Shown here: piece by piece, positions 820 to 51,061 of the stretch | How the letters are laid out: each line of letters opens with the position of its first letter | How positions within the stretch are numbered: the first letter of the stretch is position 1 | Source of the DNA: Clostridia bacterium | GTDB lineage: Bacteria > Bacillota > Clostridia > Christensenellales > Aristaeellaceae | Direction: 5' to 3' | Length of the DNA stretch: 64,000 bases | NCBI GenBank assembly: GCA_017626895.1 | Contig: JAGAHV010000159.1 | Location: 36,567-100,566, forward strand | Notes under the pieces: model-generated | Told to the model about the DNA's origin: nothing | Databases searched by the model: none | The model's input: the letters and a program-made list of their open reading frames with translations, nothing else | Made by a program: the position numbers and the translations under genes

Positions 820-2410
820 TTAACAGGTCGTATCCGACACTTTCCAGTCCTGGAGCTTTCTTGTCTGTGAATCGAATGAAACGCCTATTCTGATCACCTT
901 CCGGGAATCCGCAGCAAAAGCCAGCGCATAATCTTTCGTGTCAATCTGCTTAAGTGCTTCATTGGCCGACCCGTCCCGCTTGAATTCAAACAGATAAATA
1001 TACTTTTTGGTTTCGACCTTGCAGTCAATTCGTCCGGAATACGTATGCATCTCGCAGAGAGTGAACTTCCCCAGCAATGTAAAAACCAGATATATTACCG
1101 TCTGAAAAACATGTTCAGACGAATCTGTTTCAGGTGTACAGGTGATGTTTGCAAAAAGTGAAGTCAGCACATCTTTTATCCGATCCAGTTCACCCTGCTC
1201 AATGTACCTTCTCAGTGTGAAAATGTCATTTCCTGATCCTGCTCCGCAGTTCGCCACAAATTCGTGCATCAGGCATTCAACAAACCCATACTTAACCTCT
1301 TCATTCGGGAATGCCAGGGTATATGCACGTGCATCACGATCATAGTCTGTAATCGTCAGATAACCGGTCTGGTAGAGCAGCGGCACCGGTTCAAGACTGT
1401 ACCCCGTGTAATTCTTCAGCGTTCCTTCACCTGCATACAGCGTTCCTTCACCTGCATACAGCGTTCCATCTGTCAGCTTTCGAACATCAAAACCCGTATC
1501 CTTACATTTCCCTGTCAGAAAAGTCGGCGTGCCTGTTTCAAACCAGTACGAGCCGAAGTCTTTATCCAGCAGCGCGCCGAAAAGACTGTACGGATTATAG
1601 ACACTTTCGCTGTCCGGATGGAAATAGTATCCGTCATACTGTTTTCTTAAAGCCGCCTCACATTCCTCAGCGGTCATTTTTCTTCGCTCAGCCAAAGCAC
1701 CTGTCTCATCCTCAAAATACCAGTGCAGTTCTTCCCTGGTTATCCCGCACAGATTGGCGTAATCCGCTGACAGAGAAATGTCTCTCAGCTGGTCCACATC
1801 ACTGAAAAGACTGACTTCATTGAGCCTTGTGACGCCTGTAATAAAGATAAAACGGATGAAATCATCTGCTTTTTTCAGTCTGCTGAAAAAACCTTTGAGC
1901 ACCGCCTGCGTATGTGCGGCGCGATGCTGATCCTCCATCGTGTCAAGAAGCGGCTTATCATATTCATCTGCCAGGACGGCACAGCGCCGTCCGGTCATCT
2001 CTGCCGCCATTTCCAAAAGCCGCTCAAACCGGTATCCAAGAGTCTCATCTTTGTATTTGTCTCCGTAGATTTCCTCCCATTTCGAAAGATGCTGATTCAA
2101 CACTTTCTCGATAGACGTGTTTTCATAGTATTCTCCATTGAAATCAAAACTAAAACCGGGTAGGGTTTAAACGCGTCCGGATTATTCTTTTCAAGCTGCT
2201 CAATAGCAAGTCCGGAAAACAGTTCTCTTTTTCCTTCCCAATAGGCTTTCAATGTGGAAAGAAGAAGACTTTTCCCAAATCTTCTGGGACGGATCAGGAA
2301 ACATTTTCATGAACCAGCTGATAGATGAACGGCGTTTTATCCACGTACGCAAAGTTCTCTGTTCTCAGCTTTTCAAAGCTCTGAATGCCAATCGGCAGTT
2401 TTTTTCTCAT
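820..2410 (-). pseudogene. AAA-ATPase-like + PD-(D/E)xK (PDDEXK_9-type) family gene disrupted by at least two frameshifts
   Basis: Three minus-strand frames join into one full-length homolog of the intact paralog at 10397-12124. (i) ATG 2410 gives [38 protein letters not shown], then a stop at 2294. (ii) The shifted frame reads [48 protein letters not shown] (Walker-A-like RPRRFGKS). (iii) A further shift reads [28 protein letters not shown] and runs into ORF 820-2103, which ends with GRIDCKVETKKYIYLFEFK (PD-(D/E)xK-like). The frameshifts lie near 2293-2300 and 2150-2160. Confidence 0.75.
1417..1467. repeat. 21-bp perfect tandem duplication inside the pseudogene
   Basis: The unit CAGCGTTCCTTCACCTGCATA occurs at 1417-1437 and 1438-1458, followed by a partial third copy. 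It is in frame and encodes the duplicated GTLYAGE-GTLYAGE-GTL seen in ORF 820-2103. Confidence 0.9.
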
Positions 2411-6955: not shown

Positions 6956-6982
6956 ACGCAGTCCCTTCAGACTGCGTTTTTC
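6956..6982 (+). terminator. Rho-independent terminator after the permease genes
   Basis: ACGCAGTC-ccttca-GACTGCGT followed by TTTTTCTC, preceded by an A-run. Confidence 0.7.
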
Positions 6983-7058
6983 TCTTAAATGCCAGATCTC
7001 AGCCGGAACAATGCTGCATCGGCTATTGACCACCCGCTGAGACCCAGAAAGGAGTCCC

Positions 7059-9151: not shown

Positions 9152-10330
9152 ATGGCTGACTTTATCCGGCTTGGAATCATTGGCATTGGCAATCAGGGCT
9201 CCATGTATGCCCGCCGCATCGTAAAGGAAAACTGGTGTCCGGAGATCCGTCTGACCGCCATTGCGGACAAGAATCCCGACCGCATTGAATGGGCCAAATC
9301 CGCCATTTCGCCTGATCTTCAGTACTTTGATGATGCCATTGCCATGCTGGACAGCGGCGTCATTGACTCCTGTATCGTCGCTGTTCCCCATTATGATCAT
9401 CCCCACCTTGTCATTGAATGCATGAAGCGCGGCATTCATGTCATGTGCGAAAAGCCTGCCGGCGTCTACACCCTTCAGGTTCGTGAGATGATGGCCGAAG
9501 CGGACAAACATCCCGAGGTTGTCTTTGGCATGATGTTCAATCAGCGCACCAACTGCCTCTACCGCAAAATGCGGGAGCTGATTCAGAGCGGCAAATACGG
9601 CCGTGTGCGCCGCGCCAACTGGCTGATCACCAACTGGTATCGTCCGCAGTTCTACTATGACAGCGGCGACTGGCGTGCCACCTGGTCTGGCGAGGGCGGC
9701 GGCGTATTGCTCAATCAGTGCCCGCACCAGCTGGACCTGTGGCAGTGGATTCTGGGAATGCCTGTAAAGGTTCAGTCCTTCATGCGCTTTGGTCAGTGGC
9801 ATGACATTGAAGTGGAAGACGATGTCACCACGTACATGGAGTATGCGGACGGACATACCGGCGTCTTTACCACCTCTACCGGCGATCCTCACGGAACCAA
9901 CCGTTTTGAGGTTCAGATGGACGGCGCGCAGCTGATTGCTGAAGGGGAAACCCTGATGCTGGCTGAACTGGATCAGCTGGAACAGGACTGGACAAAGACC
10001 AACAAGGAGGCCTTTGGATCTGTTCCCTGCAAAGTCATTAATGTTGAAATGGATGGACTCAATCCGCAGCACCAGGGCGTTCTCAATGCCTGGGCTGGTG
10101 CCATTCTGCGCGGCGAGCCGCTGGTTGCGGATGGACATGAGGGCATTAACGGGCTCATGCTCTCCAATGCCATGCATCTCTCCTCTTTCCTCGGAAAGCC
10201 CGTTGAGCTGCCCTTTGATGAAAAGCTCTACTACGATGAGCTCATGAAACGTGTGGCCACCTCCAAGCGCAAGAGCGGCGGCCCCGCCGTTTTCGCCGAC
10301 ACCGCCAATTCATTCGCCGGAACCAAGTAA
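9152..10330 (+). CDS. Gfo/Idh/MocA-family NAD(P)-dependent oxidoreductase
   Basis: ORF track, 392 aa. N-terminal Rossmann motif IRLGIIGIGNQGSMYARRI, then the EKP motif (VMCEKPAG). RBS AAAGGAG. Confidence 0.85.
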   Translation: MADFIRLGIIGIGNQGSMYARRIVKENWCPEIRLTAIADKNPDRIEWAKSAISPDLQYFDDAIAMLDSGVIDSCIVAVPHYDHPHLVIECMKRGIHVMCEKPAGVYTLQVREMMAEADKHPEVVFGMMFNQRTNCLYRKMRELIQSGKYGRVRRANWLITNWYRPQFYYDSGDWRATWSGEGGGVLLNQCPHQLDLWQWILGMPVKVQSFMRFGQWHDIEVEDDVTTYMEYADGHTGVFTTSTGDPHGTNRFEVQMDGAQLIAEGETLMLAELDQLEQDWTKTNKEAFGSVPCKVINVEMDGLNPQHQGVLNAWAGAILRGEPLVADGHEGINGLMLSNAMHLSSFLGKPVELPFDEKLYYDELMKRVATSKRKSGGPAVFADTANSFAGTK

Positions 10331-10396: not shown

Positions 10397-12124
10397 TCAA
10401 GCATTGTATCGTTTCACCATACAGCTTTTTTGGCAGAAGCAGATTCCATAGGCTTTGCATCCCACATATCCATCATCCAGAATCCCTTCCTCATATCTCT
10501 TGTCCCTGATCTGGGAAAAAGCCTCGTTAATTCCATCCTGCATTTCAATGAATTTCTTTCTTGCCTTCACTTCAAAGAGAATGGCCGGAAGATCATGTTT
10601 AATCGGATACAGGACAATATCCGGACGTCCATTTCCTTCTTCCCGATTCGACCGTGCCACATAATCTGGCACGGCATGGAGCAGTGACAGGAAGAAGCCG
10701 TGATAAAAGCTCTCCGTGCTGTCAAATGTGCTGATCATCATTTCCAGAAGATGATTGATGCAATCTTCCATTCCTTCCACATCATCATTCAGAACAGATC
10801 GAGCCAGTGGACTCAGGTCCTCTTTCTGAATCTGTTTATCAAACCATTTGCGTATCTGATTTCTATAAATACTCCTTATCTCTGCATTGGGAATTGCCAG
10901 CCGGCCATAAATATCTTCTCCGCCAAGTCTTTCAGAAACTTTTTTCAGATAACCGGTAAAGAACAGAAAATTCCATAAATTATCAGCCGATTCGCCGATT
11001 TCCTCATACGTGATATCCTCATGAATCTGCTTCTCAATCGTTCCGCCCTCGATAAGTCTGTTCAGTTCTTCTTTCATCGCCGCATCTGCTCCGGCTATCA
11101 GATCCCGAATAATTTGATTTGAGGATGTATTTGACCAATAGGGTTCAGGAAATTTTTTGTTTTCATTGACAATCCCATCCACATAATTGGTTATACTCCA
11201 GGGATTATAGATTTCCGTCTCGCCAAAGATATAACCATCATACCATTCCTTCACCTCAGGCGTTTTTGACTCAATTCCATAGTCTTCAAGCATCTGCATC
11301 GTTTCCTGTACCGTAAAACCAAAGGCTTCATCAAATGCCCCTGACCTGATAGAATTGATTTTCAAATTGTTCATACCTGTGAAAATGCTTTCTTTGCTGA
11401 TCCGAAGACAGCCGGTGATCACGGCAAGCTCAAGTGCATTATTCGTTTTGAGACATGACTCAAAAAGGGAGCGGATAAAACTGACCATTTCCTGATAGAA
11501 ACCCTCATGATACGCATTTTCAAGCGGGACATCGTATTCATCAATCAGAATCAGGACTTTTCTCCCATGATAGTGCATCAGGGCATCTGAGAGCAGTTTT
11601 AACGACGTCGAATACCTTGTAATTTCTGCGAGACCTGATTTTTCATCTTCAAACACACTGTCCTTTCCGGGAACGGACAGTTCTTCAATGATCTTCCTGT
11701 CAGCCAAAGGCAGTCTCCCCTGTGTCCAGAGATAGGAATGCCTTTTAATCTCGGAAATGATATTTTCCCTCAGTTTCTTAAATGAAGAAATAAAGTCAGG
11801 CTGTCTTGCAGACTTAATCGACAGACTAATCACCGGATATTTTCCCATCATGGATAGAATCTCTTTCGGTGCCCCCATGATTTTCTTTCCTTCAAAATAC
11901 CAGCTTTTATCTATCTCTTTCCCATCGTTGTCATATTCGAGTTCAAAAAAAGTCTGAAGCATGGAAAGTGCGAGCGTCTTGCCAAATCTTCTTGGCCGGG
12001 TGAATAAGGTTACCTTTCCGCCTTTTTCAACGAGACCCCGAACCAGCATGGTTTTATCAACGTAATACAGATTTCCCTCGACGAACTCCTTGTAATTCTC
12101 ATAGCCAATTCCTATTTTTTGCAT
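10397..12124 (-). CDS. AAA-ATPase-like + PD-(D/E)xK (PDDEXK_9-type) family protein, intact
   Basis: ORF track, 575 aa. The N-terminus is MQKIGIGYENYKEFVEGNLYYVDKT with a Walker-A-like FTRPRRFGKT. The C-terminal nuclease-like motif is GRPDIVLYP...ILFEVKARK. The gene is visibly AT-richer than its flanks. Confidence 0.8.
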   Translation of the reverse strand: MQKIGIGYENYKEFVEGNLYYVDKTMLVRGLVEKGGKVTLFTRPRRFGKTLALSMLQTFFELEYDNDGKEIDKSWYFEGKKIMGAPKEILSMMGKYPVISLSIKSARQPDFISSFKKLRENIISEIKRHSYLWTQGRLPLADRKIIEELSVPGKDSVFEDEKSGLAEITRYSTSLKLLSDALMHYHGRKVLILIDEYDVPLENAYHEGFYQEMVSFIRSLFESCLKTNNALELAVITGCLRISKESIFTGMNNLKINSIRSGAFDEAFGFTVQETMQMLEDYGIESKTPEVKEWYDGYIFGETEIYNPWSITNYVDGIVNENKKFPEPYWSNTSSNQIIRDLIAGADAAMKEELNRLIEGGTIEKQIHEDITYEEIGESADNLWNFLFFTGYLKKVSERLGGEDIYGRLAIPNAEIRSIYRNQIRKWFDKQIQKEDLSPLARSVLNDDVEGMEDCINHLLEMMISTFDSTESFYHGFFLSLLHAVPDYVARSNREEGNGRPDIVLYPIKHDLPAILFEVKARKKFIEMQDGINEAFSQIRDKRYEEGILDDGYVGCKAYGICFCQKSCMVKRYNA

Positions 12125-18230: not shown

Positions 18231-18256
18231 GGCGTCATCCTCCTCTGCTCTGGTCA

Positions 18257-18406
18257 ATTGCCTGAGACACGTTGCCAATGGGTCAGATTTTCCTTACTGT
18301 CGCTGCGCGACAGAGCCACTTTGCAAGCCTCCACTCTGTTCATTTGCCTGAGACACTTTGCCAATGACCCGGATTTCCCTTACTGTCGCTGCGCGACAGG
18401 GCCACT
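18257..18406 (-). repeat. Intergenic hairpin-repeat family, tandem copies B and C (period 85 bp)
   Basis: Copies 18257-18320 and 18342-18406 share ATTTGCCTGAGACAC-TTGCCAATG-..GGATTT-CCTTA-CTGTCGCTGCGCGACAG-GCCACT. Perfect 7-bp/3-nt-loop hairpins lie at 18297-18313 and 18383-18399. A further palindrome GACAGAAAG-C-TTTCTGTC follows at 18411-18428. Confidence 0.8.
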
Positions 18407-18564
18407 GCCCTGACAGAAAGCTTTCTGTCTCCCCTCATTCGCCAGTTTCACGGAATCGTTATATCACAAAATCTCCTTTCCCTGCATTCAACTGATGGTT
18501 GAAACGGACAAAGCCTGATCAAAACCAGCCGGAGCAGAAGCTGCTCCGGCTGTATCTGGGCTGT

Positions 18565-25879: not shown

Positions 25880-27964
25880 TCACTTTTCCGACCCGATGGT
25901 CATCGTGCCGGCATAGTCGTAAACAGCGGAATCCAGGTCGAGCACCAACGCCGGGATGATGGCCGCATCCGCGCAGGTCACCAGAATTCCACGGTTGAAC
26001 ATGCAGCCGTTTTCATCCACGTAAACCACATTGGAATGGGTATATCCGGTGGTGCGGGTGATCCAGAAACCGTTTCCCGCTACAGGCTCCTCCGAGGCGT
26101 TCCAGGCGCCGCTGTGCAGCGCATAATCCGTTGGCGTAAACTGTTTTGCCCGATCATGCACCTCATCCCGGGGGCTGAATCCATGGATCTTTGAACTGTC
26201 ATACATGAAAAGCTCCGATTCAGCGAGAATGAACACCCGGTCCTTCGTTTCCTTTCCGGAATCCATGCCAAAGTAATAGTTGCTTTCGTTTCGTACAGGG
26301 TTTTCAAGGATTGCCGCCTGTTCCTCCGCTGCAAATGCCCGGTCAAGGAAATTATCCGTTTCCGCCGAATAATCTGCTGCGGATTTGTTGGCCTCCGGAC
26401 CATATCCGTTCAGCCAGCTGCGAAGCGTGCAGTTTTCCCAGCTCACATCCTGCTGATCCTTCTGGAACGGCTGGCAGTCAAGGGCCTCATCTGCCAGCAA
26501 AAGTGCGGTCCCGTCCCTGATCTCAAGCACCCGCCACAGGATCGGTTCCCTGATGAAATAGCGGTAGTTTTTGTTTCCCGTCTCCTCCCCAAAACGGCTC
26601 ACGCGAAAATAGCAAACACCGTCCCGTTCCCATTCATCCGCCTCCCACGCAGCCTCTTCCAGTGCCGCATATAGCGCCGGATCCACAATCGGATCCCCGT
26701 CAGCTTCCTCCGCGGTTTTCACAATCTCCGTCTGGGGATAGTGTCCGAAACGGACAAGCGAATACGTTACCCGTTTTCCGTCCGGTTCATCCGGGTCTGC
26801 CTCCACCACCGGATTTCTGATCTGTTTTCTGAGGTTTTCCCCGGATTGTTCCGGCAGAGGCTTTTTGATGATATCCCGGGAGGTGGTCCATCCTGCCGGC
26901 TCTATATCCGCTGTATCCAACCGGATCCAGAGGGCCGGAAGAATCCCGGCATCGTTACAGGTGGCCATGGTGCCGCGCTGGTAGATGTATCCAAAATCAC
27001 AGATGTACGAGACGCTTTCAGGTGTATACCCGTTTGTGCGCATGAACCAGAAGCTGTTTCCTCTGTAATCCTTCACCGGAGACCACCAGGCACCCCTGCA
27101 TTTCGCGTACAGGGTCGAGCAAAAGCGCTTGGCCGGATCATCCTTCCCGCTGGCCGCGTAAAAACCATGTTCTGTCGCGGTTTCCGTTCCGAAAACCTCC
27201 TCATTGGAAAGCAGAAAAATCCGGTCTTCCGTTGTCTCTCCGCAGTCGGTATGATATGCCGCGTTGGCATGATTTACCACCTGCACCGGCAGCACTGATT
27301 CCTGCTGGGAGCGCGTAAACGCCCTGTCCAGGAATCCCTTTCCCTGATAATCAATACCGGCGGCATTTTCCGTTCCCGGCAGACCGTTCAGCCAGCTTCT
27401 GACCGTGGAACTGCCCCAGTTTACCGTACCGTCTTCCGCGTGATAGGGCTGACAGTCCAGCAGCCGGTCCGCCATCAGAAGGGCTCTGTCCGCCTCAATG
27501 TCAATGATCCGCCAGCGGATCGGATCGTAGCGGAAATAATGAAACTCCTCCGTCCCCCAGCGATAATGACCGGCACTGTCCATAGCACTGTTCACCGCAT
27601 CCCGGCGGCTCATCCGCAGATAGCGGATTCCGTCGATCGTCGTTTCATTCTCCGTCCAGGAGGCATTGAGCAGCCGCAGATACAGTTTTGGGTCCACCAA
27701 AACGTCCCCCTCCTGAACGGCATATTCATCCACCGCTGAAAAGTCCGAGGGAACGATTTCCGTCTGAGGATACTCGCCGAAAGTAATGCAGCACCATTTT
27801 GTGACCTGACCGGTCGAAAGACCGGCATCCGCTTGCACAACTGGCTCAGCCAAATGAAGCTCGGCTGGTTTCGCTATCGCTTCCGCATACGCCGCGGCAT
27901 GCAGAACCAACATGAGCAGGCAAAGTCCGAGCACCAGAAAACGGGAAGTTTTATCTTGCCTCAT
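25880..27964 (-). CDS. Secreted protein with two tandem DUF6273-like modules
   Basis: ORF track, 694 aa. The signal peptide is MRQDKTSRFLVLGLCLLMLVLHAAAYA. Two internal repeats each carry FG(E/H)YPQTEIV, (I/L)(R/L)WR(I/V)(I/L), (V/L)RSWLNG, FLDRAF, DR(I/V)F(L/I)L, FW(F/I)(M/T)RT and (L/I)PAL. The same module occurs twice in ORF 48673-50985. Confidence 0.7.
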   Translation of the reverse strand: MRQDKTSRFLVLGLCLLMLVLHAAAYAEAIAKPAELHLAEPVVQADAGLSTGQVTKWCCITFGEYPQTEIVPSDFSAVDEYAVQEGDVLVDPKLYLRLLNASWTENETTIDGIRYLRMSRRDAVNSAMDSAGHYRWGTEEFHYFRYDPIRWRIIDIEADRALLMADRLLDCQPYHAEDGTVNWGSSTVRSWLNGLPGTENAAGIDYQGKGFLDRAFTRSQQESVLPVQVVNHANAAYHTDCGETTEDRIFLLSNEEVFGTETATEHGFYAASGKDDPAKRFCSTLYAKCRGAWWSPVKDYRGNSFWFMRTNGYTPESVSYICDFGYIYQRGTMATCNDAGILPALWIRLDTADIEPAGWTTSRDIIKKPLPEQSGENLRKQIRNPVVEADPDEPDGKRVTYSLVRFGHYPQTEIVKTAEEADGDPIVDPALYAALEEAAWEADEWERDGVCYFRVSRFGEETGNKNYRYFIREPILWRVLEIRDGTALLLADEALDCQPFQKDQQDVSWENCTLRSWLNGYGPEANKSAADYSAETDNFLDRAFAAEEQAAILENPVRNESNYYFGMDSGKETKDRVFILAESELFMYDSSKIHGFSPRDEVHDRAKQFTPTDYALHSGAWNASEEPVAGNGFWITRTTGYTHSNVVYVDENGCMFNRGILVTCADAAIIPALVLDLDSAVYDYAGTMTIGSEK

Positions 27965-28097: not shown

Positions 28098-30143
28098 TCA
28101 CCAGACCAGAACCCGATCCTCAGGATTCAGATACATGCCGTCACCCTCAACAATATCAAAGGTTTCAAGGAATTCATCAAACTGCTGCACCGTAACATTT
28201 GTCCGCAGATAGGACAGCGGATGCGGATCCTGCATCAGCTGGTAATATTCTGTTTCCCTTGTGTTGATTCGTGCCCAGACTTTCGCATAGGACTCAAAGA
28301 ACCGGCGATAATCCACATTCTCCTTTTGGGAAAGCAGGCCGAGCATGCACTTCATTCCCGCCATATCAGCGATTGCCTCTCCCTGAATGTTGGCCCCCTG
28401 AACCTTATATCCGCCAAATGCCGTCATGGAATTATAGTAGTCAATCAGTTTCTGCGCACGGCCAAGAAACGCCGCATAATCCTCTTTCGTCCACCAGTCA
28501 TTCAGGGCACCCGTGGCATCAAACTGCGCACCGCTGGTATCAAAAGCATGAGAGATTTCATGTCCTATCACGCACCCGATTCCGGCATACAATTCCTCTG
28601 TGGTCATATTCTCCCGATAAAACACACCGCCCAGAATCCCGCGGATGATGTTAATCGAGTTTTCCAGCGGCTCATAATAAGCATTGGTCTCCAGAATATC
28701 AAAGTTCCAGAGATCATGGTCCACCTTTGTGTTGAGCAGGCTTGCATTATATGCCTTTTCAAATTTACGGATGGCATTCACACTGTCATAGAATCCCAGT
28801 CCTTTCAGGGACAATCCGCTGTAGTCACGCCATTTTTCCGGATAGACCGCATTAATCCTGATCGCATCCAGCTTTTCAACTGCCTTTTTTCTTGTTTCAT
28901 CAGAAAGCCACTCCTCCGTACTCAGGAGCTCACGGTAATAGGCAATGCTCTCCTCACAGATACGGGTAACTTTCTCTTTCATCTTTGTCGAATCATACTT
29001 GGCAAGGAAAGCCCGGTTCATCGGCGTCGTCAGTGTGCTGCACACGATCGCATAGGCCGTTTCCTCATCCGGCCGTGAACCGGTGCTGCCGCTACGCATG
29101 TTGTTGGCTTCAGTCAACAGATCATAACATTCTTTGTCCAGCGTGCCCAAATGGTCCAGAGCCGCACAGGTAATCAGGTAGTTTTTAAACTTTTCCAGAT
29201 GGTCCTCCGTGTAGATCTCGTCGAGTTTCTGCACATACGCCGGTTCACTCACAAGGCAGCGCTTTGCATGTCCATATCCCTGGGCACTGACAATGTCAAA
29301 AATCGGATAGTTCCTGCAGAGTGCCCACGCCTCCTCCGCATTCATCTCATTATTGGTGCGCTTATCGTGATCCGGCGAAAGATGGTCAGCAGATGTCATG
29401 ATGGCACCGGCCAGTTCTGTCTCAAGTGCCAGGGCACTTTCCCAGATTTTCCCTGCTTCCTCCACGGTAACCCCCAGTTTCGGCATTACCTTTTCCAGCA
29501 GTTTCCGATAGGCGGCCTCATTTCGTTCACCCATCTCTGTACGGGTCTTATACTCCGCGGAATCCGCCAGCAACAGGCCCAGCGGGTCTATACTGAGCAG
29601 ATACGTCTCGGGATCATTCTTGCCAACCGTTGCCTCAACAGAAATGAATTGTTTCACAATTGAGTCTGTGTCGCAAAACAGGGCTGTCAGCTCATCCATA
29701 TTGGAAACCGCCTGAATGGACTCGATTGCCTTCCTGATTGGTTCGACACCAAGGGCATTTCGGGCATCCCAGTCAAGAATTGCCTCGTACATTCCCTGTA
29801 CAAGCTCTACGTCTTCACCCTGCAGCGTCTTATCTGTCAGCACGTCCATGCCCATTTTACGGATCTCATCCGAAACAGCCATGAAGGACGATTCAGTTCC
29901 GTATCCGGGACGAATCTTCACTGCTTTCGCCCAGTCATAGTTGACATACAGCTGCAGATCATCTATCGGATTTGCCGGTCTCTCTGTTACTTTGGCCACA
30001 TTTTCACTCAGATCATAGTCTACCCATGGACTTCCGTCGTCCAGTTTTCCCTCTGCGGCTACCACAGCAGTCAGCATTGTGAGTAATGCTGCCAGCAGCA
30101 GTACGCCTGCCCTTTCCCATTTATCCATGCGATGTGTTCTCAT
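28098..30143 (-). CDS. pepO: M13-family zinc metallopeptidase (PepO / neprilysin-like) with an N-terminal membrane anchor or signal
   Basis: ORF track, 681 aa. HExxH in GCVIGHEISHAFD; also NAYYEPLENSI and GEAIADMAG. The N-terminal hydrophobic segment is AGVLLLAALLTMLTAVVAA. RBS AGGAGG. Confidence 0.9.
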   Translation of the reverse strand: MRTHRMDKWERAGVLLLAALLTMLTAVVAAEGKLDDGSPWVDYDLSENVAKVTERPANPIDDLQLYVNYDWAKAVKIRPGYGTESSFMAVSDEIRKMGMDVLTDKTLQGEDVELVQGMYEAILDWDARNALGVEPIRKAIESIQAVSNMDELTALFCDTDSIVKQFISVEATVGKNDPETYLLSIDPLGLLLADSAEYKTRTEMGERNEAAYRKLLEKVMPKLGVTVEEAGKIWESALALETELAGAIMTSADHLSPDHDKRTNNEMNAEEAWALCRNYPIFDIVSAQGYGHAKRCLVSEPAYVQKLDEIYTEDHLEKFKNYLITCAALDHLGTLDKECYDLLTEANNMRSGSTGSRPDEETAYAIVCSTLTTPMNRAFLAKYDSTKMKEKVTRICEESIAYYRELLSTEEWLSDETRKKAVEKLDAIRINAVYPEKWRDYSGLSLKGLGFYDSVNAIRKFEKAYNASLLNTKVDHDLWNFDILETNAYYEPLENSINIIRGILGGVFYRENMTTEELYAGIGCVIGHEISHAFDTSGAQFDATGALNDWWTKEDYAAFLGRAQKLIDYYNSMTAFGGYKVQGANIQGEAIADMAGMKCMLGLLSQKENVDYRRFFESYAKVWARINTRETEYYQLMQDPHPLSYLRTNVTVQQFDEFLETFDIVEGDGMYLNPEDRVLVW

Positions 30144-39271: not shown

Positions 39272-40225
39272 GTGATTCAGTTGGCTGAAATCAGCCCGAT
39301 TGTGACCGCTTTAAAGCAGAATATTGCACAGGCCGTCGTTGGAAAAGACGACGTGGTCGAGCTCATGCTCACCACCTTGCTCTGCGAGGGCCATCTGCTG
39401 ATTGAGGATGTCCCCGGGGTCGGAAAAACCACCCTGGCCTCCGCGCTTGCCCGGTCCCTTTCCTGTACCTTCAGGCGCATTCAGTTTACCCCGGACATTA
39501 CCCCCTCCGACATTACCGGATTTACTATGCCCAACCTGAACGGGGAGATGCAGTACCGGCCCGGTGCCGTCATGAGTCAGATCGTCCTGGCGGATGAAAT
39601 TAACCGGACCTCCCCCAAGACACAGTCTGCCCTCCTTGAGGTCATGGAGGAACATCAGGTCACCGTCGATGGGGTCACCCATCGGATGGAACGGCCGTTC
39701 ATGGTCATGGCGACGCAGAACCCGGTGGATTTCGTCGGCACCTACCCGCTGCCGGAGGCACAGATGGACCGCTTCCTGATGCGCATTTCCATCGGCTACC
39801 CCAGCGAGGCGGATGAGGCGGATATTCTGGAGCGTTACAGCATGCCCACGCAGCCCATGCATCAGGTGGCGCCGGTCTGCACCGCTCAGGACATCATCAA
39901 CCTGCAGCAGCAGGTCAAGACGATTTACTGTTCCCGGGAGGTACGTTCGTATATCGTTTCGCTTTGTGCCGCCACCCGAAAGGTCAGCACCCTGACCCTT
40001 GGCGCCAGCACCCGGGCGGCAATCGCCCTTTGCCATGCCGCACAGGCCAATGCCCTGCTCTCCGGACGGGACTATATCATTCCGGAGGATGTTCAGCACC
40101 TTTACATGCATGTTCTGGCCCACCGCCTGGTTCCCTCCGCAGAGGCGCGGATGGCAAACCTGACCTCCGAACAGATCCTGGCCGGCATTATGAAGCAGGT
40201 GCGCATTCCGGTAAAAATGCGATGA
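39272..40225 (+). CDS. MoxR-family AAA+ ATPase
   Basis: ORF track, 317 aa. Walker A is VPGVGKTTLA and Walker B is VLADEINR. The start is ambiguous: GTG at 39272, or TTG at 39281, which has better spacing to GAGGTGA. Confidence 0.9.
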   Translation: MIQLAEISPIVTALKQNIAQAVVGKDDVVELMLTTLLCEGHLLIEDVPGVGKTTLASALARSLSCTFRRIQFTPDITPSDITGFTMPNLNGEMQYRPGAVMSQIVLADEINRTSPKTQSALLEVMEEHQVTVDGVTHRMERPFMVMATQNPVDFVGTYPLPEAQMDRFLMRISIGYPSEADEADILERYSMPTQPMHQVAPVCTAQDIINLQQQVKTIYCSREVRSYIVSLCAATRKVSTLTLGASTRAAIALCHAAQANALLSGRDYIIPEDVQHLYMHVLAHRLVPSAEARMANLTSEQILAGIMKQVRIPVKMR

Positions 40226-41361
40226 CTATTCGCGGCTTTCTGACCCTCATGGTCGGGGCGACGCTGATTCTGATCGGCCTCTCTACCGGAAACAGCGCCT
40301 GCATGCTAACCGGGGGAATTGCGGCCTCTGCCCTGAGTCTGATGTTTCTCAGCATCCTGATATCTGCCCTTTCCCTTCGGGTTACCCAGCAGATTTCCCC
40401 TCAGGAGGTACTGAGGCAGAACACGTGCCAGCTCAATACCCGCTTTTTCATGCTCTCTCTTTTGCCTCTGGCCCCGCTGGTCATGGATGTCCAGCTGCCC
40501 TCCGGCCGTCATTCTGCCTACCTGATCCATCCCCGGCCCTTTGGCCGTACAGATGCCACCAATGAATTTGTCTGTCCGCATGTCGGCGAGTTTTCCGTCG
40601 GCATCCAGACCATTACCCTGCACGACAGTCTGGGGATGTTCCGGTTCAGGCGCCGGGTGAAGGGACTGGAAAAGATTCGCATTCTCCCCCAGGCCGCCGC
40701 CGTCTCGCCTGTCCCCATCAAGCCGGGCAGCGAGGAAGGTCCCGCTTCGGCGTATGCCACCACGGACTATACCACGCCGGACAGCATCCGCGGCTGGGTG
40801 GAGGGAGATGAACTCAAGCGTGTTCACTGGAAGCTCTCTGCCAGCCGGCGCACGCTGCTGGTGCGAACCTATGAACAGCAGAACCGGCCGGATACCCTGA
40901 TTCTCCTTAACACCGGCGGCATTGATCCGGAAAATCTGCGCTCGGCCTTTGTGATAGACGCCCTCACGGAAAGCTGTGCCGGAACCGTGTCACACCTGCT
41001 GAGTGAAAACCGGCCGGTCTGCATTCCCATTACCCGGACCGGCGGCGAAATTCGGGGCGAAAGCATGCGGGCCTTTGACAGCATCCAGCGAATGCTCGCC
41101 CAGCTTGAATTCACGGCCCAGGATCACTTTCCCGAGACCCTTGAACTGGCTGCCCCGCGTCTGCAGCGCTCCGGCACGCTCCTGATCTTTTCCCCTGTCA
41201 TTACACCGCATATTACCGAAGCAGTTATCCGCCTGTCCCTGTTTGGTACAGGCATCCGCTTTACCCTTGCCTGCCGTGAGGAAATTCCCAAAAACGAAAT
41301 GAAACTGCTTCAAATGCTTGTTGCCGCCAATATTGAAACATTTCAGGTGTCGATATCATAA
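40222..41361 (+). CDS. DUF58-domain protein (MoxR partner, two N-terminal TM helices)
   Basis: This is the in-frame part of ORF 39964-41361. The ATG at 40222 overlaps the MoxR stop (ATGA). The N-terminus is MTIRGFLTLMVGATLILIGL... and the DUF58 signature is IRGWVEGDELKRVHWKLSASRRTLLVRTYE. Confidence 0.85.
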   Translation: MTIRGFLTLMVGATLILIGLSTGNSACMLTGGIAASALSLMFLSILISALSLRVTQQISPQEVLRQNTCQLNTRFFMLSLLPLAPLVMDVQLPSGRHSAYLIHPRPFGRTDATNEFVCPHVGEFSVGIQTITLHDSLGMFRFRRRVKGLEKIRILPQAAAVSPVPIKPGSEEGPASAYATTDYTTPDSIRGWVEGDELKRVHWKLSASRRTLLVRTYEQQNRPDTLILLNTGGIDPENLRSAFVIDALTESCAGTVSHLLSENRPVCIPITRTGGEIRGESMRAFDSIQRMLAQLEFTAQDHFPETLELAAPRLQRSGTLLIFSPVITPHITEAVIRLSLFGTGIRFTLACREEIPKNEMKLLQMLVAANIETFQVSIS

Positions 41362-43655
41362 TGAATGGTTCTGTATTTCAGTTTCGAAAGCATTCTTTCT
41401 ATGCCCTGCTGCTCTCGCTGTGCCTCGGTTTCGGGCTGGCCTGTCCGCTCCATCTGATTCTCGGACTGACCCCCCGGCCTTTGCTGGTGCTGGGAATTTC
41501 TCTGGGTGTTTCCCTTCTGTTTTTTCTCTCCCGGGGAATCCGGCACCTCAAACTGCTCCCCTATCCGGTGATTCTCGGCTTTTCGGCCTTTATCCTGTTC
41601 ATTCACAGAGGGGATGCCGTTCCTTTCTGGAACGCCCTGATTCTGACCCTGAACGGATCACCGGCGCCGCTTTCAGCCTGGTCCTATCCGCTGACCATTC
41701 TGCTGACACTGTTCCTTTCCACCGTCGCATGCGCCGTTGCTGCCGGAGAGGAACCCTACCTCTCCATCCTGCCTCTTTCCCTGCTCATTTTCATCCCCAT
41801 TGCCATGGGAAAGAGCGGCATCAGTCCGTTATGGCTTCTGCCCTGCATTCTCGCCATCCTGCTCTCTTTCCGCGAAAGCAGCACACGGTATCTTGCCTCC
41901 ATCCTCTCTGCCGCGGCAGCCATCGCACTGGCCATGCTCATTATGCCCCTGCTCCCTTCCGGCAATTCCGCTCTGGAATCGGTCGCCGGCAATGTTCGCA
42001 AGGCCATCGATGATTATCTGTTCTTTACCGATGCCAGAACGACCTTTTCTCTGTTCAGCACCGGCTGGCAGCCCTACGGGGCTAACCGTCTCGGCGGCAA
42101 GGTATCTCCCTCCGATTCGAAAGTCATGCAGGTTTTTGCCAGCGGACCCGTTCTGCTGAGAGGCACCGCGCTCAACGAGTATGATGGTTTTTCCTGGCAG
42201 GATACCATCGGCGGACGCCGTTACCTGTTTATCGATCCAAGGTTCATCACCCTGCGGCGGAATCTGTTCGATTCCAACCGTCCGGCGAAATCCATTTCCG
42301 CCCGTTTCCCCGCTGAGGAATCCATCCGCGTGTACATGGAATCGGACAGTACCAGCACGCTTTTCGTCACCCAGCGGTTCAGCAGCCTCAGCGGTCAGGG
42401 AATCGTTCCCTATTTTTCCCCGGCAAGCGAGCTGTTTGCCACCGATTCCCTGACCGCCGATACCCTGTATGATTTTAACGGTATCCGGTTGACGGCGCAG
42501 ACAGAAGGCATTCGTGATCTCGTCCTTGATGCCGCTGCCACCTCAGATTCCTGGCTGGAGGAAACCATTCGGGAACAGTACCTTTCCGTTCCGGAAATCG
42601 TGGAGGAGGACGTGTACCGTCTGGCGGGTGAGATCACATCAAATGCCCGGACAGATTTTGACCGGGCCCTGGCCCTTTCCACTTACCTTGCCACACATTA
42701 CCAATACACGCTGGATCAGGGAGAACCGCCCGCTTCCCGGGACTTCGTTTCCTGGTTTCTGCTTACGGAAAAGCGAGGCTACTGCACCTCTTTTGCCAGC
42801 AGCCTCGCCATCCTGGCCCGGACCATCGGCCTGCCGGCCAGATATATTGAGGGCTATTCAGCCCGGCCCGGTCAGGACGGAATTGCCTATGTGACGCAGG
42901 AAAATGCCCATGCCTGGTGTGAAATCTATTTTTCCGGCTTTGGCTGGCTCCCCTTTGACCCTACTCCCGGGCCCAATTCCGGAACGGACAACAGCGGACA
43001 AAGCCTGCCCGGTAATTCACCCAGTCCATCTCCCTCTCCTTCTCCGTCACAGTCACCCTCTCCCTCTCCGCCGCCGGATGCAACACCAACCCCCTCTCCG
43101 TCCCCGGCAAATTCCCAGGATCCATCCCCGACCCTTTCTCCTACTCCGACGCCCACGCCTACACCGGAACCGACTCCCACCGTTCCGCCGGAGGATCCGG
43201 AGAATGAGGACAATCCCCAGGACCGCCGGATCTTTTTCCTTCTTTTGATTTTCCTTCTTCTGTTGCTTCTGGTCGCCCTTGCAGCCCTGCGCCTGTACAC
43301 CTCAACACCTGCCTATCTCTGTCAGCGGCAGAAAGGACGCCGCAATGCACTGCTTGTTTATTATGCGGCTGTTCTGCAGGTTCTGCACTGCATGCGCATT
43401 CATCCGGACAATGGTGAGGCACCCGCCACTTTCCTTGCGCGCATTCCCGGGCTGCTGCCCGAACCCATCCGGACAGATGCGTTCAGTGATTCGGTCTGTC
43501 ATGCCGGTTACAGTCCCCGCAAACCTTCCCGTAAAGAGCTTGAGCAGGCAGAGGAATTCTATCGGTCACTGACCGGACAGATGTCGATTCCGGCACGTCT
43601 GCGTCTTCTCAAAGACCGGCTCCTTCATGGCCTTCCCATGAAATCACTTTCGTAA
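41361..43655 (+). CDS. Transglutaminase-like membrane protein (TgpA-like) with a Pro/Ser/Thr-rich linker and a C-terminal TM + DUF4129-like tail
   Basis: ORF track, 764 aa. It overlaps the DUF58 stop (TAATG). The N-terminus is multi-TM. The Cys-His-Asp core is EKRGYCTSFASSLAILARTIGLPARYIEGY...NAHAWCEIYFSGFGWLPFDPTP, followed by SPSPSPSPSPSQSPSPSPPP...TPTPTPTPEPTPT. Confidence 0.85.
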   Translation: MNGSVFQFRKHSFYALLLSLCLGFGLACPLHLILGLTPRPLLVLGISLGVSLLFFLSRGIRHLKLLPYPVILGFSAFILFIHRGDAVPFWNALILTLNGSPAPLSAWSYPLTILLTLFLSTVACAVAAGEEPYLSILPLSLLIFIPIAMGKSGISPLWLLPCILAILLSFRESSTRYLASILSAAAAIALAMLIMPLLPSGNSALESVAGNVRKAIDDYLFFTDARTTFSLFSTGWQPYGANRLGGKVSPSDSKVMQVFASGPVLLRGTALNEYDGFSWQDTIGGRRYLFIDPRFITLRRNLFDSNRPAKSISARFPAEESIRVYMESDSTSTLFVTQRFSSLSGQGIVPYFSPASELFATDSLTADTLYDFNGIRLTAQTEGIRDLVLDAAATSDSWLEETIREQYLSVPEIVEEDVYRLAGEITSNARTDFDRALALSTYLATHYQYTLDQGEPPASRDFVSWFLLTEKRGYCTSFASSLAILARTIGLPARYIEGYSARPGQDGIAYVTQENAHAWCEIYFSGFGWLPFDPTPGPNSGTDNSGQSLPGNSPSPSPSPSPSQSPSPSPPPDATPTPSPSPANSQDPSPTLSPTPTPTPTPEPTPTVPPEDPENEDNPQDRRIFFLLLIFLLLLLLVALAALRLYTSTPAYLCQRQKGRRNALLVYYAAVLQVLHCMRIHPDNGEAPATFLARIPGLLPEPIRTDAFSDSVCHAGYSPRKPSRKELEQAEEFYRSLTGQMSIPARLRLLKDRLLHGLPMKSLS
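43015..43190 (+). repeat. Low-complexity Pro/Ser/Thr-coding tract inside the transglutaminase gene
   Basis: Runs of CCNTCN/CCNACN codons encode SPSPSPSPSPSQSPSPSPPPDATPTPSPSPANSQDPSPTLSPTPTPTPTPEPTPT. Confidence 0.85.
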
Positions 43656-48672: not shown

Positions 48673-50985
48673 TCACAGCTGAATAACAATCATCGGACGG
48701 ACCGAACGGTTGGTTCGGTAAACCTCTTCCCCATAGTAACCAACCGAGCCATCATATATAACATCCATCGCATGTCCGCGATTCGTTCCCGGTGTACGAA
48801 GCCACCAGTTGCAATATCCATCAAGGCTTACCCAGCCACCATGTATTTCAGCCGTTTTTGATGTCTGACACTTACGTTCTTCATCTGTTAAAAAGTATTT
48901 TTGAACATCCACTGCGGACGGTATGAAAACTCTGTCCTGCGAATCATTTCCTGGATCCGTGTGATATTCGGCATTTTCATCTGCCGTCACAGTTACCGTA
49001 ACCAGTTTATCCTGTTCTTCTGCCGAAAAAGCTGTATACAGAAAATCTTCATTCAGCCATTTCCGTAATGTGCAGGTATCCCACGAAACAGGCGTCATCT
49101 TTGTATTAAACGGCTTCGCCTCAAGGCCATACCTGCTGATACATGTTGCCTGGCCATCCTGAATATCCAGAATAATCCATTCAATACTTTCGTTTCCATT
49201 TCTTTTATTATTATCCAGTTCATAGTGACCAAACGAAATAATGTCACCAATCTTCGCAGATTCAGCCTTTTCCTCCTGTTTATTTTCCTGTTCTTTCTGA
49301 AAAACCAAATTCAGCATAATCGCAGGACGCACTGCATTGTATTCATAGTTCACTGTTTCACCTTTGCTGGTTACCTTCCCGCTTCCGTTGACAAAGGCAG
49401 CTTTGCGCTGATCACTTCCCGGTGTGCGCAGCCAATATCTGCATGCCCCCTCCTGGAATGTCTTAACGCCATTCTCCCTGGTCATACGGCTTGCAGCGCA
49501 GCGACTGTCATTGTCGTCACTCAGGTAAGTATTCACTTCGTTGACAGACAGCAGAAATACTTTATCCTGAGTATCCTTCCCTGTACCTGTTGGATGATCC
49601 GGATTTTTATCTGCCGAAACGGTAATTGTTTCCAGCTGCATCTGTTCAGCTTGTGTGAACGCTGTATTCAGAAACTCATCGTTCAGCCAGCGGCGCAATT
49701 CACACTTTTCCCAGGTAACTGCTTCAATTTTTGAGTGATAGGGTTTTGCATCCAGACCCAGCTTGCTGACACAAAGTGCCATGTCTCCCCTTACTTCGAG
49801 AACAATCCACTCAATCTCTTCCAAACCATTTCCAAGTTCATTATCCTGATTATAATGACCAAATGAAAGAACATCCCCTGCGCTGACATCCAGCCTCATT
49901 GTTTCAATGGATGCTTCAATTTCATTGGGGGCTTCTGTCGGTTCGATTGTGAGTGCCTCTGTTGGTTCTGGTGTCGGTGCTTTCGTCGGTTCCGGTGTTG
50001 GCGTCACCGTTGGTTCTGGTGTTGGTGTCTCCGTCGGTTCTGGTGTTGGCGTCACCGTCGGTTTCGGTGTGGGCGCTTCCGTCGGTTCCGGTGTGGGTGT
50101 GGGCGTCGCCGTCGGTTCCGGTGTTGGTGCCTCCGTCGGTTCCGGTGTTGGCGTCACCGTCGGTTTCGGTGTGGGTGCCTCCGTCGGTTCCGGTGTTGGC
50201 GTCACCGTCGGTTTCGGTGTGGGTGCCTCCGTCGGTTCCGGTGTTGGCACCTCGGTTGGAATCAATGCTGGAGTTGCTGTCGGTTCGACCATCGGAGCCT
50301 GTGTCGGTTCAGTTGTTTCAACTGTCAGTACAGGTGTTGGTTTCGTTTTTGAATGGAAGAAGATTGCTGAACCCAGGGCAACGAGTACCGCAGCAATTAA
50401 TCCACCAATAATCAGTGAAACCTTTTTCGTTTTCTTTGGAATTGAAATGCCCTTTTTTTCTGGTGCTGCCTCTGAACCTGTCACCGGATCAGCTTCTGTT
50501 TCTGATTCCGCCTTGTGTTTCCGTTCTAATCCGCTCTTTTCAAATGCCTCGCAGAACTTAAAAACGTATTCTTCCTCTGACATGTTGTACTTCATAATAG
50601 CCTGCAACGTTCCAATCTGGAGTTGCATGTCATCCGGAAGTTCTGTTTTTTCCAAATGAATCGCTATGAAACGCTTATGCTTCGTTATCGCAAAATTAAT
50701 TTCATTTTGGACATTCCTTCTTACTGCCGATGTCGGTGTGATCATCACTACGAACACTGTACAGTTGCTCAAAGCAGTTGCTATTTCCTTTGTCCATTCA
50801 TTGCCCGGAGAAATGCCCTCATCATACCAGACATTATAACCAGCTTCGTTGAACTTTTTGATTTCTTCGAAAACTTTGTCTGAATCCTTATGCGCATAAC
50901 TCACAAAGATATAGGGGCCTTTCCCCCTGTATGCAGGATATGGCATGCGTCCTACACCAGGAACCAGTCTGGTTTTATCACTCAT
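48673..50985 (-). CDS. Single-pass membrane protein: N-terminal TIR domain, TM helix, Pro/Thr-repeat linker, two DUF6273-like modules
   Basis: ORF track, 770 aa. The TIR_2-like region is GPYIFVSYAHKDSDKVFEEIKKFNEAGYNVWYDEGISPGNEW...CTVFVVMITPTSAVRRNVQNEINFAI. A KKGISIPKKTKK stretch precedes the TM helix VSLIIGGLIAAVLVALGSAIFF. The linker contains PTPEPTEAPTPKPTVT repeats. Two modules then carry FGHY, IEWI(V/I)L, LR(R/K)WLN, D(K/R)VF, WLRTPG and VRP. Confidence 0.8.
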   Translation of the reverse strand: MSDKTRLVPGVGRMPYPAYRGKGPYIFVSYAHKDSDKVFEEIKKFNEAGYNVWYDEGISPGNEWTKEIATALSNCTVFVVMITPTSAVRRNVQNEINFAITKHKRFIAIHLEKTELPDDMQLQIGTLQAIMKYNMSEEEYVFKFCEAFEKSGLERKHKAESETEADPVTGSEAAPEKKGISIPKKTKKVSLIIGGLIAAVLVALGSAIFFHSKTKPTPVLTVETTEPTQAPMVEPTATPALIPTEVPTPEPTEAPTPKPTVTPTPEPTEAPTPKPTVTPTPEPTEAPTPEPTATPTPTPEPTEAPTPKPTVTPTPEPTETPTPEPTVTPTPEPTKAPTPEPTEALTIEPTEAPNEIEASIETMRLDVSAGDVLSFGHYNQDNELGNGLEEIEWIVLEVRGDMALCVSKLGLDAKPYHSKIEAVTWEKCELRRWLNDEFLNTAFTQAEQMQLETITVSADKNPDHPTGTGKDTQDKVFLLSVNEVNTYLSDDNDSRCAASRMTRENGVKTFQEGACRYWLRTPGSDQRKAAFVNGSGKVTSKGETVNYEYNAVRPAIMLNLVFQKEQENKQEEKAESAKIGDIISFGHYELDNNKRNGNESIEWIILDIQDGQATCISRYGLEAKPFNTKMTPVSWDTCTLRKWLNEDFLYTAFSAEEQDKLVTVTVTADENAEYHTDPGNDSQDRVFIPSAVDVQKYFLTDEERKCQTSKTAEIHGGWVSLDGYCNWWLRTPGTNRGHAMDVIYDGSVGYYGEEVYRTNRSVRPMIVIQL
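49940..50262. repeat. Tandem coding repeats (Pro/Thr linker), including a perfect 48-bp unit present 2.6 times
   Basis: The units at 50130-50177 and 50178-50225 are identical (CCTCCGTCGGTTCCGGTGTTGGCGTCACCGTCGGTTTCGGTGTGGGTG), with a partial third copy. Diverged copies extend back to about 49940. Confidence 0.9.
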
Positions 50986-51061
50986 GTTTCAGTCCTTCTT
51001 CATTGGTTCATAGTCAGCTGTAAAGGCTTTCTATCTATTTCATATGAGCCAGTTCGGTCCA

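Follow-up and report, generated by a model that had tools for sequence, protein, structure and literature searches.

Can a bacterial TIR domain take its cue from outside the cell? The question is raised by a gene on the reverse strand of a 64,000-nucleotide stretch of a metagenome-assembled genome labelled Clostridia bacterium (assembly GCA_017626895.1, contig JAGAHV010000159.1, positions 36,567 to 100,566; hereafter the window). The gene encodes a 770-residue protein, here called the TIR protein, whose Pfam domain order runs from TIR_2 through a transmembrane (TM) helix and a Pro/Thr linker to two copies of DUF6273. Judged from its sequence, this is a well-supported case of a type II single-pass protein, with its N-terminal TIR domain in the cytoplasm and its C-terminal modules beyond the membrane. 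We tentatively read it as a receptor that depletes NAD+ on its own when clustered by a ligand, and weigh this reading below against other accounts of the same architecture.

Domain architecture and predicted topology

First, the N-terminal head is recognizable as a TIR domain both by profile and by predicted structure. Pfam TIR_2 (PF13676) matches residues 26-130 with 65.7 bits against a cutoff of 28 (E=7e-18), and Pfam ThsB_TIR matches the same domain with 29.6 bits against 21.2 (E=9e-7). The AlphaFold2 (AF2) model, at a mean predicted local distance difference test (pLDDT) of 85.5, has a flavodoxin-like alpha/beta fold of five strand-helix units in canonical TIR order, four of the strands being called as 3-residue strands and the fifth as a short bridge at residues 130-131. 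Foldseek returns the TIR domains of SPARTA (TIR-APAZ) and SARM1, AbTir and ThsB as top matches, with probability 1.00, and gives template modelling scores of 0.6-0.72 (normalised to the query) against bacterial TIR NAD+-cleaving enzymes (NADases). Ahead of the domain lies a conserved 24-residue extension (LVPGVGRMPYPAYRG) that marks this TIR subfamily, modelled with two short strands at a pLDDT of about 46-72.

Within this head, Glu95 sits where TIR NADases carry their catalytic Glu. It is invariant in an alignment of the N-terminal 160 residues with 21 relatives (22/22; alignment A1) and in an alignment of 42 membrane-anchored relatives (42/42), as are the BB-loop residues W53-Y54...I58..G61..W64, whose surrounding motif WYDEGIxPGNEW is invariant or nearly so across phyla and changing ectodomains. 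A PDB profile search pairs Glu95 with the Glu of VHKELKCA in C. elegans TIR-1, the SARM1-type catalytic Glu, and with those of YELNG in BtTir (7uxr) and WDELEQA in Cat1.

Second, a single hydrophobic helix separates this head from the rest of the protein. The 19-residue Kyte-Doolittle profile reaches its maximum of 2.61 there, in a peak at residues 189-211, and has no other peak of 1.5 or more. Six Lys residues fall within the 15 positions preceding the helix and two follow it. An equivalent helix is found in the 42 relatives, where Lys plus Arg averages 4.1 on the TIR side versus 1.3 on the far side, the TIR side being higher in 39 of the 42 (Wilcoxon p=4e-8). The protein has no N-terminal signal sequence, and DUF6273 is mostly an exported domain elsewhere: 44 of 48 homologs without a TIR domain carry a signal peptide, lipobox or TM helix ahead of it, and among the four that do not, P0012 and P0055 seem to lack part of their N-terminus. 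It is the combination of a lone TM helix with no signal sequence, the charge bias and the export of DUF6273 homologs that argues for TIR-in, modules-out. Beyond the helix comes a stalk of 134 residues, which matches the Pfam PT repeat below threshold and whose DNA Tandem Repeats Finder resolves into 12.2 copies of a 24-nt period. Such Pro/Thr stalks are typical extracellular spacers of Firmicutes, and the length of this one is sufficient to span a Gram-positive wall.

Third, the two C-terminal modules belong to DUF6273 (PF19789; 175 bits for the pair, cutoff 23.5) and are 41% identical to each other. The same pair recurs at 25880-27964 (-) in a secreted 694-residue paralog that has a signal peptide, two Pfam DUF6273 matches and no TIR head, and whose modules are 25-28% identical to those of the TIR protein. 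The paralog gene has a GC content of 0.553, typical for the window, and adjoins an M13 peptidase gene (28098-30143). On these points the reading of the letters alone in the first-pass annotation has held: Pfam and hydropathy confirm its order of TIR domain, TM helix, Pro/Thr linker and twin modules, the fold and the placement of Glu95 are as it proposed, and both its N-in/C-out topology and its observation that the module pair recurs in a signal-peptide protein find support.

What might these modules recognize? The AF2 model of module 2 is of high confidence (pLDDT 97.6), and only one PDB entry matches it significantly, through the N-terminal DUF6273 domain of Thomasclavelia ramosa IgA peptidase (9qa6), a secreted, sortase-anchored enzyme for whose catalysis that domain is dispensable. 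Among viral models (BFVD), the matches are phage DUF6273 and tail-fibre-like proteins; phage DUF6273 domains have been described as C-type-lectin-like receptor-binding modules and as targets of diversity-generating retroelements (DGRs) in gut phages (PMC10743442), although Foldseek and hhalign comparisons did not independently confirm a lectin fold for module 2. DUF6273 also stands behind other cytoplasmic heads, in Ser/Thr kinase-TM-DUF6273, FecR-DUF6273 and zinc-ribbon-DUF6273 proteins, and co-occurs with SH3_3 and PG_binding domains in many surface proteins. Because DUF6273 is a known DGR target, we looked for a retroelement: no template repeat-like sequence or reverse-transcriptase motif lies within the window, and neither a template repeat nor a reverse transcriptase is found in three loci encoding TIR-TM-DUF6273 proteins (L010, L038, L063). 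On these negatives from the window and the three loci, together with the conservation of the strain alleles described below, the TIR protein was rejected as a DGR target; its alleles are conserved across seven assemblies, and the ectodomain shows no hypermutation here.

The family and the locus

The TIR head is far from rare. Of 1.84 billion cluster representatives, 806 match it at E<1e-30, and GTDB species genomes contain at least 579 loci with it, mostly of gut and rumen Clostridia, with further occurrences in Opitutales, Spirochaetota, Chloroflexota, Myxococcota and metagenome-assembled genomes (MAGs) of Methanobrevibacter. Most relatives are soluble and have variable C-terminal regions (LRR_5, LRR_4/8, TPR, STAND NTPase). 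The TIR-TM layout, defined here as a TM helix right after the TIR domain followed by more than 120 residues, occurs in 25 of the 140 top representatives (about 18%) and in about 16 of 65 extracted GTDB open reading frames (ORFs). Across the 42 TIR-TM proteins, the commonest ectodomain is LRR_5 (16), followed by LRR_8 (10), DUF6273 (3) and Ig_3 (2), with PASTA, FGE-sulfatase, trypsin, TPR and TPM once each; these counts are not exclusive, since Pfam families overlap on the same proteins. TIR heads that are 60-72% identical are coupled through a TM helix to interchangeable ectodomains, as one would expect if receptors of this family were assembled from modules. The architecture is therefore not one of a kind, and the TIR protein is a member of a broad TIR-TM-ectodomain family.

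Three further observations concern this family. Many of the best-scoring representatives (P0121-P0128, P0183, P0232) carry 2-7 tandem TIR copies per polypeptide, which fits TIR-TIR assembly as central to the function of the subfamily. At L038, the 5' ends of two TIR genes in tandem, upstream region included, are 98% identical over 81 nt (6958-7038 and 9850-9930), and the genes differ further downstream, suggesting a recent duplication or a cassette-like exchange of sensors behind a constant TIR head. The Methanobrevibacter contigs (L037, L050; MAGs of a rumen methanogen) carry the subfamily at 47-51% identity, in L050 fused to a STAND/NACHT-type NTPase, and reflect either inter-domain transfer or binning contamination.

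Within the species, seven full-length intact alleles were recovered, encoding 688, 728, 752, 760, 768, 770 and 799 residues. They differ mainly in the length of the stalk (window 49951-50352; loci L001, L082, L086-L090), a variation that could in part be repeat mis-assembly. Their folded domains are 95-100% identical at the nucleotide level, and in one case the flanks are 100% identical. The ratio of nonsynonymous to synonymous polymorphism (pN/pS) is 0.12 for the TIR domain and 0.14 and 0.16 for the modules, and rises to about 2 in the juxtamembrane segment, the only segment with relaxed constraint. The TIR gene is real and under purifying selection at both ends. In a metagenome contig of this species that turned up in two samples (L092:6506-7184), the reading frame is lost just behind the Glu95 codon through a 4-nt indel, which reflects either loss of function in nature or faulty assembly.

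In every species-level contig that covers the locus, the TIR gene stands between tcdA/ThiF and the AKR-ferredoxin gene, and among the species-level contigs examined no empty site, with ThiF and AKR adjacent, was seen. A recent insertion was accordingly rejected, as all full-length contexts contain the gene, and so, for the phage and plasmid collections searched, was mobile-element cargo, as tblastn against them gave only domain-level matches of at most 44% identity and none of full length. An exact-sequence lookup found no record for the TIR protein or for its AKR neighbor. The gene is indeed AT-richer than both neighbors, as had been noticed at first reading: its GC content is 0.469, whereas the AKR gene reaches 0.544 and ThiF 0.579, and its third-position GC of 0.43 is the lowest among the 43 window ORFs of at least 150 residues (mean 0.623, standard deviation 0.073). 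From this composition the first-pass annotation had suggested horizontal acquisition. The hint stands insofar as an AT-rich composition fits a foreign origin, whereas the same ThiF/AKR locus in all contigs examined and the purifying selection imply that any acquisition was not recent; the gene is now a fixed, selected part of the species. The other compositional outliers of the window are two genes for AAA-ATPase_like plus PDDEXK_9 proteins, at 823-2010 (-) (GC 0.47) and 10400-12124 (-) (GC 0.42).

A PADLOC scan of the 45 window ORFs found no ThsA, SIR2, STING or Argonaute, in agreement with the earlier view that such partners are missing nearby; its only match was of the housekeeping ThiF/TcdA to generic E1 models. 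The same ORFs include no adjacent gene for a signal-binding effector (SLOG, Macro or the like), and neither the TIR protein nor the window contains STING, SAVED, a cyclic nucleotide sensor or APAZ/Argonaute. Nor did PADLOC and NCBIfam assign the TIR protein itself to a known defence system: matches to PADLOC ThsB models reach only E=1e-4, and for NCBIfam ThcB4 the score is 20.5 where 220 would be needed, both weak and at the level of the TIR domain. As to resemblance to ThsB, these matches and the Pfam ThsB_TIR match above its cutoff point in different directions.

How the protein may signal

The reading that we tentatively place first is ligand-clustered, self-contained NAD+ depletion. The DUF6273 modules would recognize a ligand on the cell surface or outside the cell, which might be a glycan, wall material or a receptor-binding structure of a phage; through multivalent contacts the receptors would gather, and their cytoplasmic TIR domains would meet; the assembled TIRs would complete a composite active site and cleave NAD+; and the lowered NAD+ would arrest growth of the affected cell. 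The protein would thereby need no partner, combining outside-in sensing and the effector in one chain and following the logic of a Toll-like receptor (TLR) with an enzymatic output. In SARM1, AbTir filaments, SPARTA tetramers and TIR-STING, the NADase active site becomes complete only when TIR domains assemble, and as for the bacterial TIR NADases, such assembly is expected to be needed for activity of the window TIR. The reading is favored by the domains and their folds, the invariant Glu95, the predicted topology, the exchange of ectodomains behind one kind of head, purifying selection at both ends and the lack of a known effector partner in the window. From the literature, the receptor-binding role of phage DUF6273 domains (PMC10743442) also speaks for it, as does amoebal TirC, where tethering to a membrane holds back a TIR NADase that would otherwise be auto-active (PMC13142454).

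Several points weigh against this reading. NADase activity of the subfamily is a prediction, made from conserved residues and fold, and a Glu at the Glu95 position is also present in the non-catalytic TIR domains of TLRs; as these keep the Glu without being enzymes, Glu95 is necessary but not sufficient for activity. The topology is deduced from hydropathy and charge statistics, and ligand binding by the modules is likewise inferred. The neighborhood consists of metabolic and transport genes and is not a defence island, and the partner search of the source genome covers the 64-kb window only. Relatives, moreover, keep company. In 28 of 80 GTDB loci, a gene for an HD-like protein of 580-690 residues lies immediately upstream of a soluble TIR relative; the protein has an HDIGYPFE motif, a weak Pfam RyR match (E=1e-4) and no PADLOC or NCBIfam match, and the pair is a candidate for an uncharacterised two-gene TIR system of gut and rumen Clostridia. 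A SLOG-like and SLATT-like membrane protein is encoded next to TIR-TM genes in L006 and L024, the latter with an LRR_5 ectodomain, and near soluble TIR relatives in L003 and L004; its SLATT_4 similarity is weak (E=7e-5, below the NCBIfam cutoff) and it has no PADLOC match. For some members of the family it might serve as an effector pore gated by nucleotides. Both kinds of partner suggest that signalling to an effector on a second protein is frequent in the family. The earlier proposals of a self-contained protein and of a trigger at the envelope or at phage adsorption are thus conjectures: known partners are missing from the window, and the partner genes beside relatives keep a distant effector in play.

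These partners also count for a second account, which we judge somewhat unlikely, in which the protein is still an outside-in sensor and its TIR domain, working as ThsB does, would convert NAD+ into a cyclic or linear ADP-ribose-type signal that activates an effector encoded elsewhere in the genome. The Pfam ThsB_TIR match above its cutoff speaks for such Thoeris-like signalling, as do the SLOG/SLATT-like genes beside TIR-TM genes and near soluble TIRs and the HD-like gene directly upstream of soluble relatives. It is weakened by the window itself, where tblastn found no homolog of either candidate partner and PADLOC no effector, and by the partners, which have neither a PADLOC match nor an NCBIfam match above cutoff.

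Could the TIR domain do no chemistry at all? The protein would then be a surface lectin or adhesin whose TIR domain serves as a non-catalytic scaffold for anchoring or oligomerisation, of the TLR/MyD88 type, an account that seems to us distinctly improbable. The secreted paralog does carry two DUF6273 modules without a TIR domain, DUF6273 is widespread in surface proteins with SH3_3 and PG_binding, and scaffold TIRs also keep the Glu. On the other hand, the (near-)invariance of Glu95 and of WYDEGIxPGNEW across phyla and ectodomains, the low pN/pS of the TIR domain and the enzymatic nature of its nearest structural matches (SPARTA, SARM1) are hard to square with a mere scaffold, and we know of no bacterial TIR that is a pure membrane anchor.

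To a release mechanism we give only a slim chance, slightly below that of the adhesin. Here a ligand, or a pull on the stalk, would trigger regulated proteolysis of the tether, and the freed TIR domain would self-assemble in the cytosol. The RsgI/anti-sigma receptors of Firmicutes have a cytoplasmic head, a single TM helix, a Pro/Thr stalk and an extracellular sensor, a layout that the TIR protein shares. FecR-DUF6273 and sigma-factor-TM-PT relatives do exist (P0042, P0114), and the juxtamembrane segment is the least constrained part of the protein. A further parallel comes from Dictyostelium TirC, in which a membrane tether formed by a single helix restrains an auto-active TIR NADase that becomes toxic once the helix is removed (PMC13142454); TirC, however, is eukaryotic, has its TM helix at the N-terminus and lacks an ectodomain. 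Against release, no linked protease gene and no cleavage motif were identified, and the case is one of analogy. Finally, a chance frame, decaying pseudogene or assembly chimera is in effect refuted: the repeat-rich linker is hard to assemble and the metagenome contig L092 has its frameshift after Glu95, but seven independent full-length intact alleles under purifying selection at both ends, identical flanks in independent assemblies, and strong hidden Markov model and structure matches for all domains leave it practically no room.

How does the proposed NAD+ depletion by a clustered surface receptor compare with what is known? Thoeris ThsB, AbTir, BtTir, SPARTA TIR-APAZ, TIR-STING and TIR-SAVED share with the TIR protein the type of TIR domain, its fold and the conserved Glu. 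These bacterial TIR NADases, however, reside in the cytosol and take their cues from within the cell, among them phage proteins, nucleic acids and cyclic nucleotides, whereas the TIR protein spans the membrane, has a large extracytoplasmic domain and lacks a ThsA, STING, SAVED, APAZ or Ago partner in the window. Closer in layout are the animal TLRs and interleukin-1 receptors (IL-1Rs), likewise single-pass proteins with an extracellular binding domain and a cytoplasmic TIR domain, which the leucine-rich repeat (LRR; 16/42) and Ig (two) ectodomains of the TIR-TM family mirror. Yet TLRs are type I proteins with an N-terminal LRR domain, a TM helix and a C-terminal TIR domain, whereas the TIR protein is a TIR-first, type II protein with a DUF6273 ectodomain; the LRR_5 relatives are TIR-first too, and the window TIR groups with enzymatic bacterial TIRs, unlike those of TLRs. 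With no sign of common descent of the whole architecture, the resemblance is best taken as convergent domain shuffling. Ser/Thr kinase-TM-DUF6273 proteins, PASTA kinases and RsgI/FecR-type anti-sigma factors have the same N-in single-pass plan with a Pro/Thr stalk and an interchangeable sensor, but the output domain of these Firmicute sensors is a kinase or anti-sigma domain where the TIR protein has a TIR domain. DGR-diversified C-type-lectin targets fused to TIR and other effectors have been reported (Kaur et al., 2020, PMC7159879; Dore et al., 2024, PMC10907252), and these TIR-CLec proteins, like the TIR protein with its putatively lectin-like modules, join a binding module to an immune-type effector. 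For most of them the prediction is a cytoplasmic location within STAND or vWA-MoxR systems, unlike the membrane-spanning TIR protein, for which, unlike DGR targets, no reverse transcriptase or template repeat occurs in the window and alleles are not hypervariable.

In the full-text literature searched, mostly outside subscription journals and hence a weak negative, no bacterial single-pass TIR protein with an extracytoplasmic sensor was described, so that the earlier statement that none is characterised holds within that scope. To our knowledge, the bacterial TIR systems characterised so far all respond to events in the cell interior. A bolder extension, which we think unlikely, is that the TIR-TM-ectodomain family as a whole comprises bacterial cell-surface immune receptors that detect tail or receptor-binding proteins of phages, or other extracellular threats, ahead of the entry of a genome and answer through TIR NAD+ chemistry. 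If true, this would be an independently built prokaryotic counterpart of TLR signalling and, among known defence pathways, the first whose sensing takes place beyond the cytoplasm. An extracellular domain wired to a TIR enzyme would couple surface recognition directly to NAD+ signalling or depletion, and what is recognized could be phage adsorption, neighboring cells, or glycans from the host or its diet. This large family extends across many phyla, is abundant among Clostridia of gut and rumen and uses kinds of ectodomain found in animal TLRs and IL-1Rs; it therefore offers a test of induced-proximity TIR activation across a membrane and of the repeated origin of TLR logic, and its members are compact single-gene candidates for engineering ligand-gated NAD+ depletion.

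Feature coordinates and other observations in the window

Table 1. Features of the TIR gene and its surroundings (window coordinates), with candidate partner genes at loci of relatives (locus coordinates). aa, residues; CDS, coding sequence.
Feature	Position	Strand	Basis
Complete CDS, 770 aa + stop codon (48673-48675)	48673..50985	-	ATG start, ORF list
Shine-Dalgarno-like GAAGGA, 7 nt before ATG	50993..50998	-	Read from sequence
N-terminal extension, aa 1-24 (TRLVPGVGRMPYPAYRG), hallmark of TIR subfamily	50914..50985	-	Alignments A1, A4
TIR domain, aa 25-150	50536..50913	-	Pfam, AF2, Foldseek
Glu95 codon, catalytic-Glu position of TIR NADases	50701..50703	-	Alignments, PDB profile search
Cytoplasmic juxtamembrane segment (predicted), aa 151-188, acidic then Lys-rich (KKGISIPKKTKK)	50422..50535	-	Translation, hydropathy
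Single TM helix, aa 189-210	50356..50421	-	Kyte-Doolittle
Pro/Thr-rich stalk, aa 212-345	49951..50352	-	63% Pro+Thr; DNA repeat array 49955-50253
DUF6273 module 1, aa 353-562	49300..49929	-	Pfam PF19789
Charged inter-module linker, aa 563-575 (QKEQENKQEEKAE)	49261..49299	-	Translation
DUF6273 module 2, aa 576-770	48676..49260	-	Pfam PF19789, AF2
Perfect 13-bp inverted repeat (CATCGAACCTGAC ... GTCAGGTTCGATG), 81 nt past stop codon	48554..48592	-	Read from sequence
HD-like gene	L003:4886-6934; also L004, L007-L009, L012, L014-L018, L022-L026, L028, L029		
HD-like gene, further loci	L032, L033, L035, L036 and others		
SLOG-like N-terminal domain + multi-TM region	L006:33-1688, L024:1-650 (-), L003:10936-11880		

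The inverted repeat 3' of the TIR gene is possibly a terminator; no T-run follows it, and it was not among the calls of a consensus terminator scan. Around the gene, consensus scans for promoters and terminators gave counts near shuffle expectation.

Elsewhere in the window, a MoxR-type AAA_3 ATPase gene, a gene without a Pfam match and a gene for a 764-residue transglutaminase-core protein (39365-43652, +) together look like a MoxR-linked operon unrelated to the TIR gene. Dispersed or tandem short repeats of 55-79 nt at 2488-2542, 18242-18320 and 18328-18411 share the palindrome CTGTCGCTGCGCGACAG and are possibly an intergenic element resembling repetitive extragenic palindromes (REP-like).

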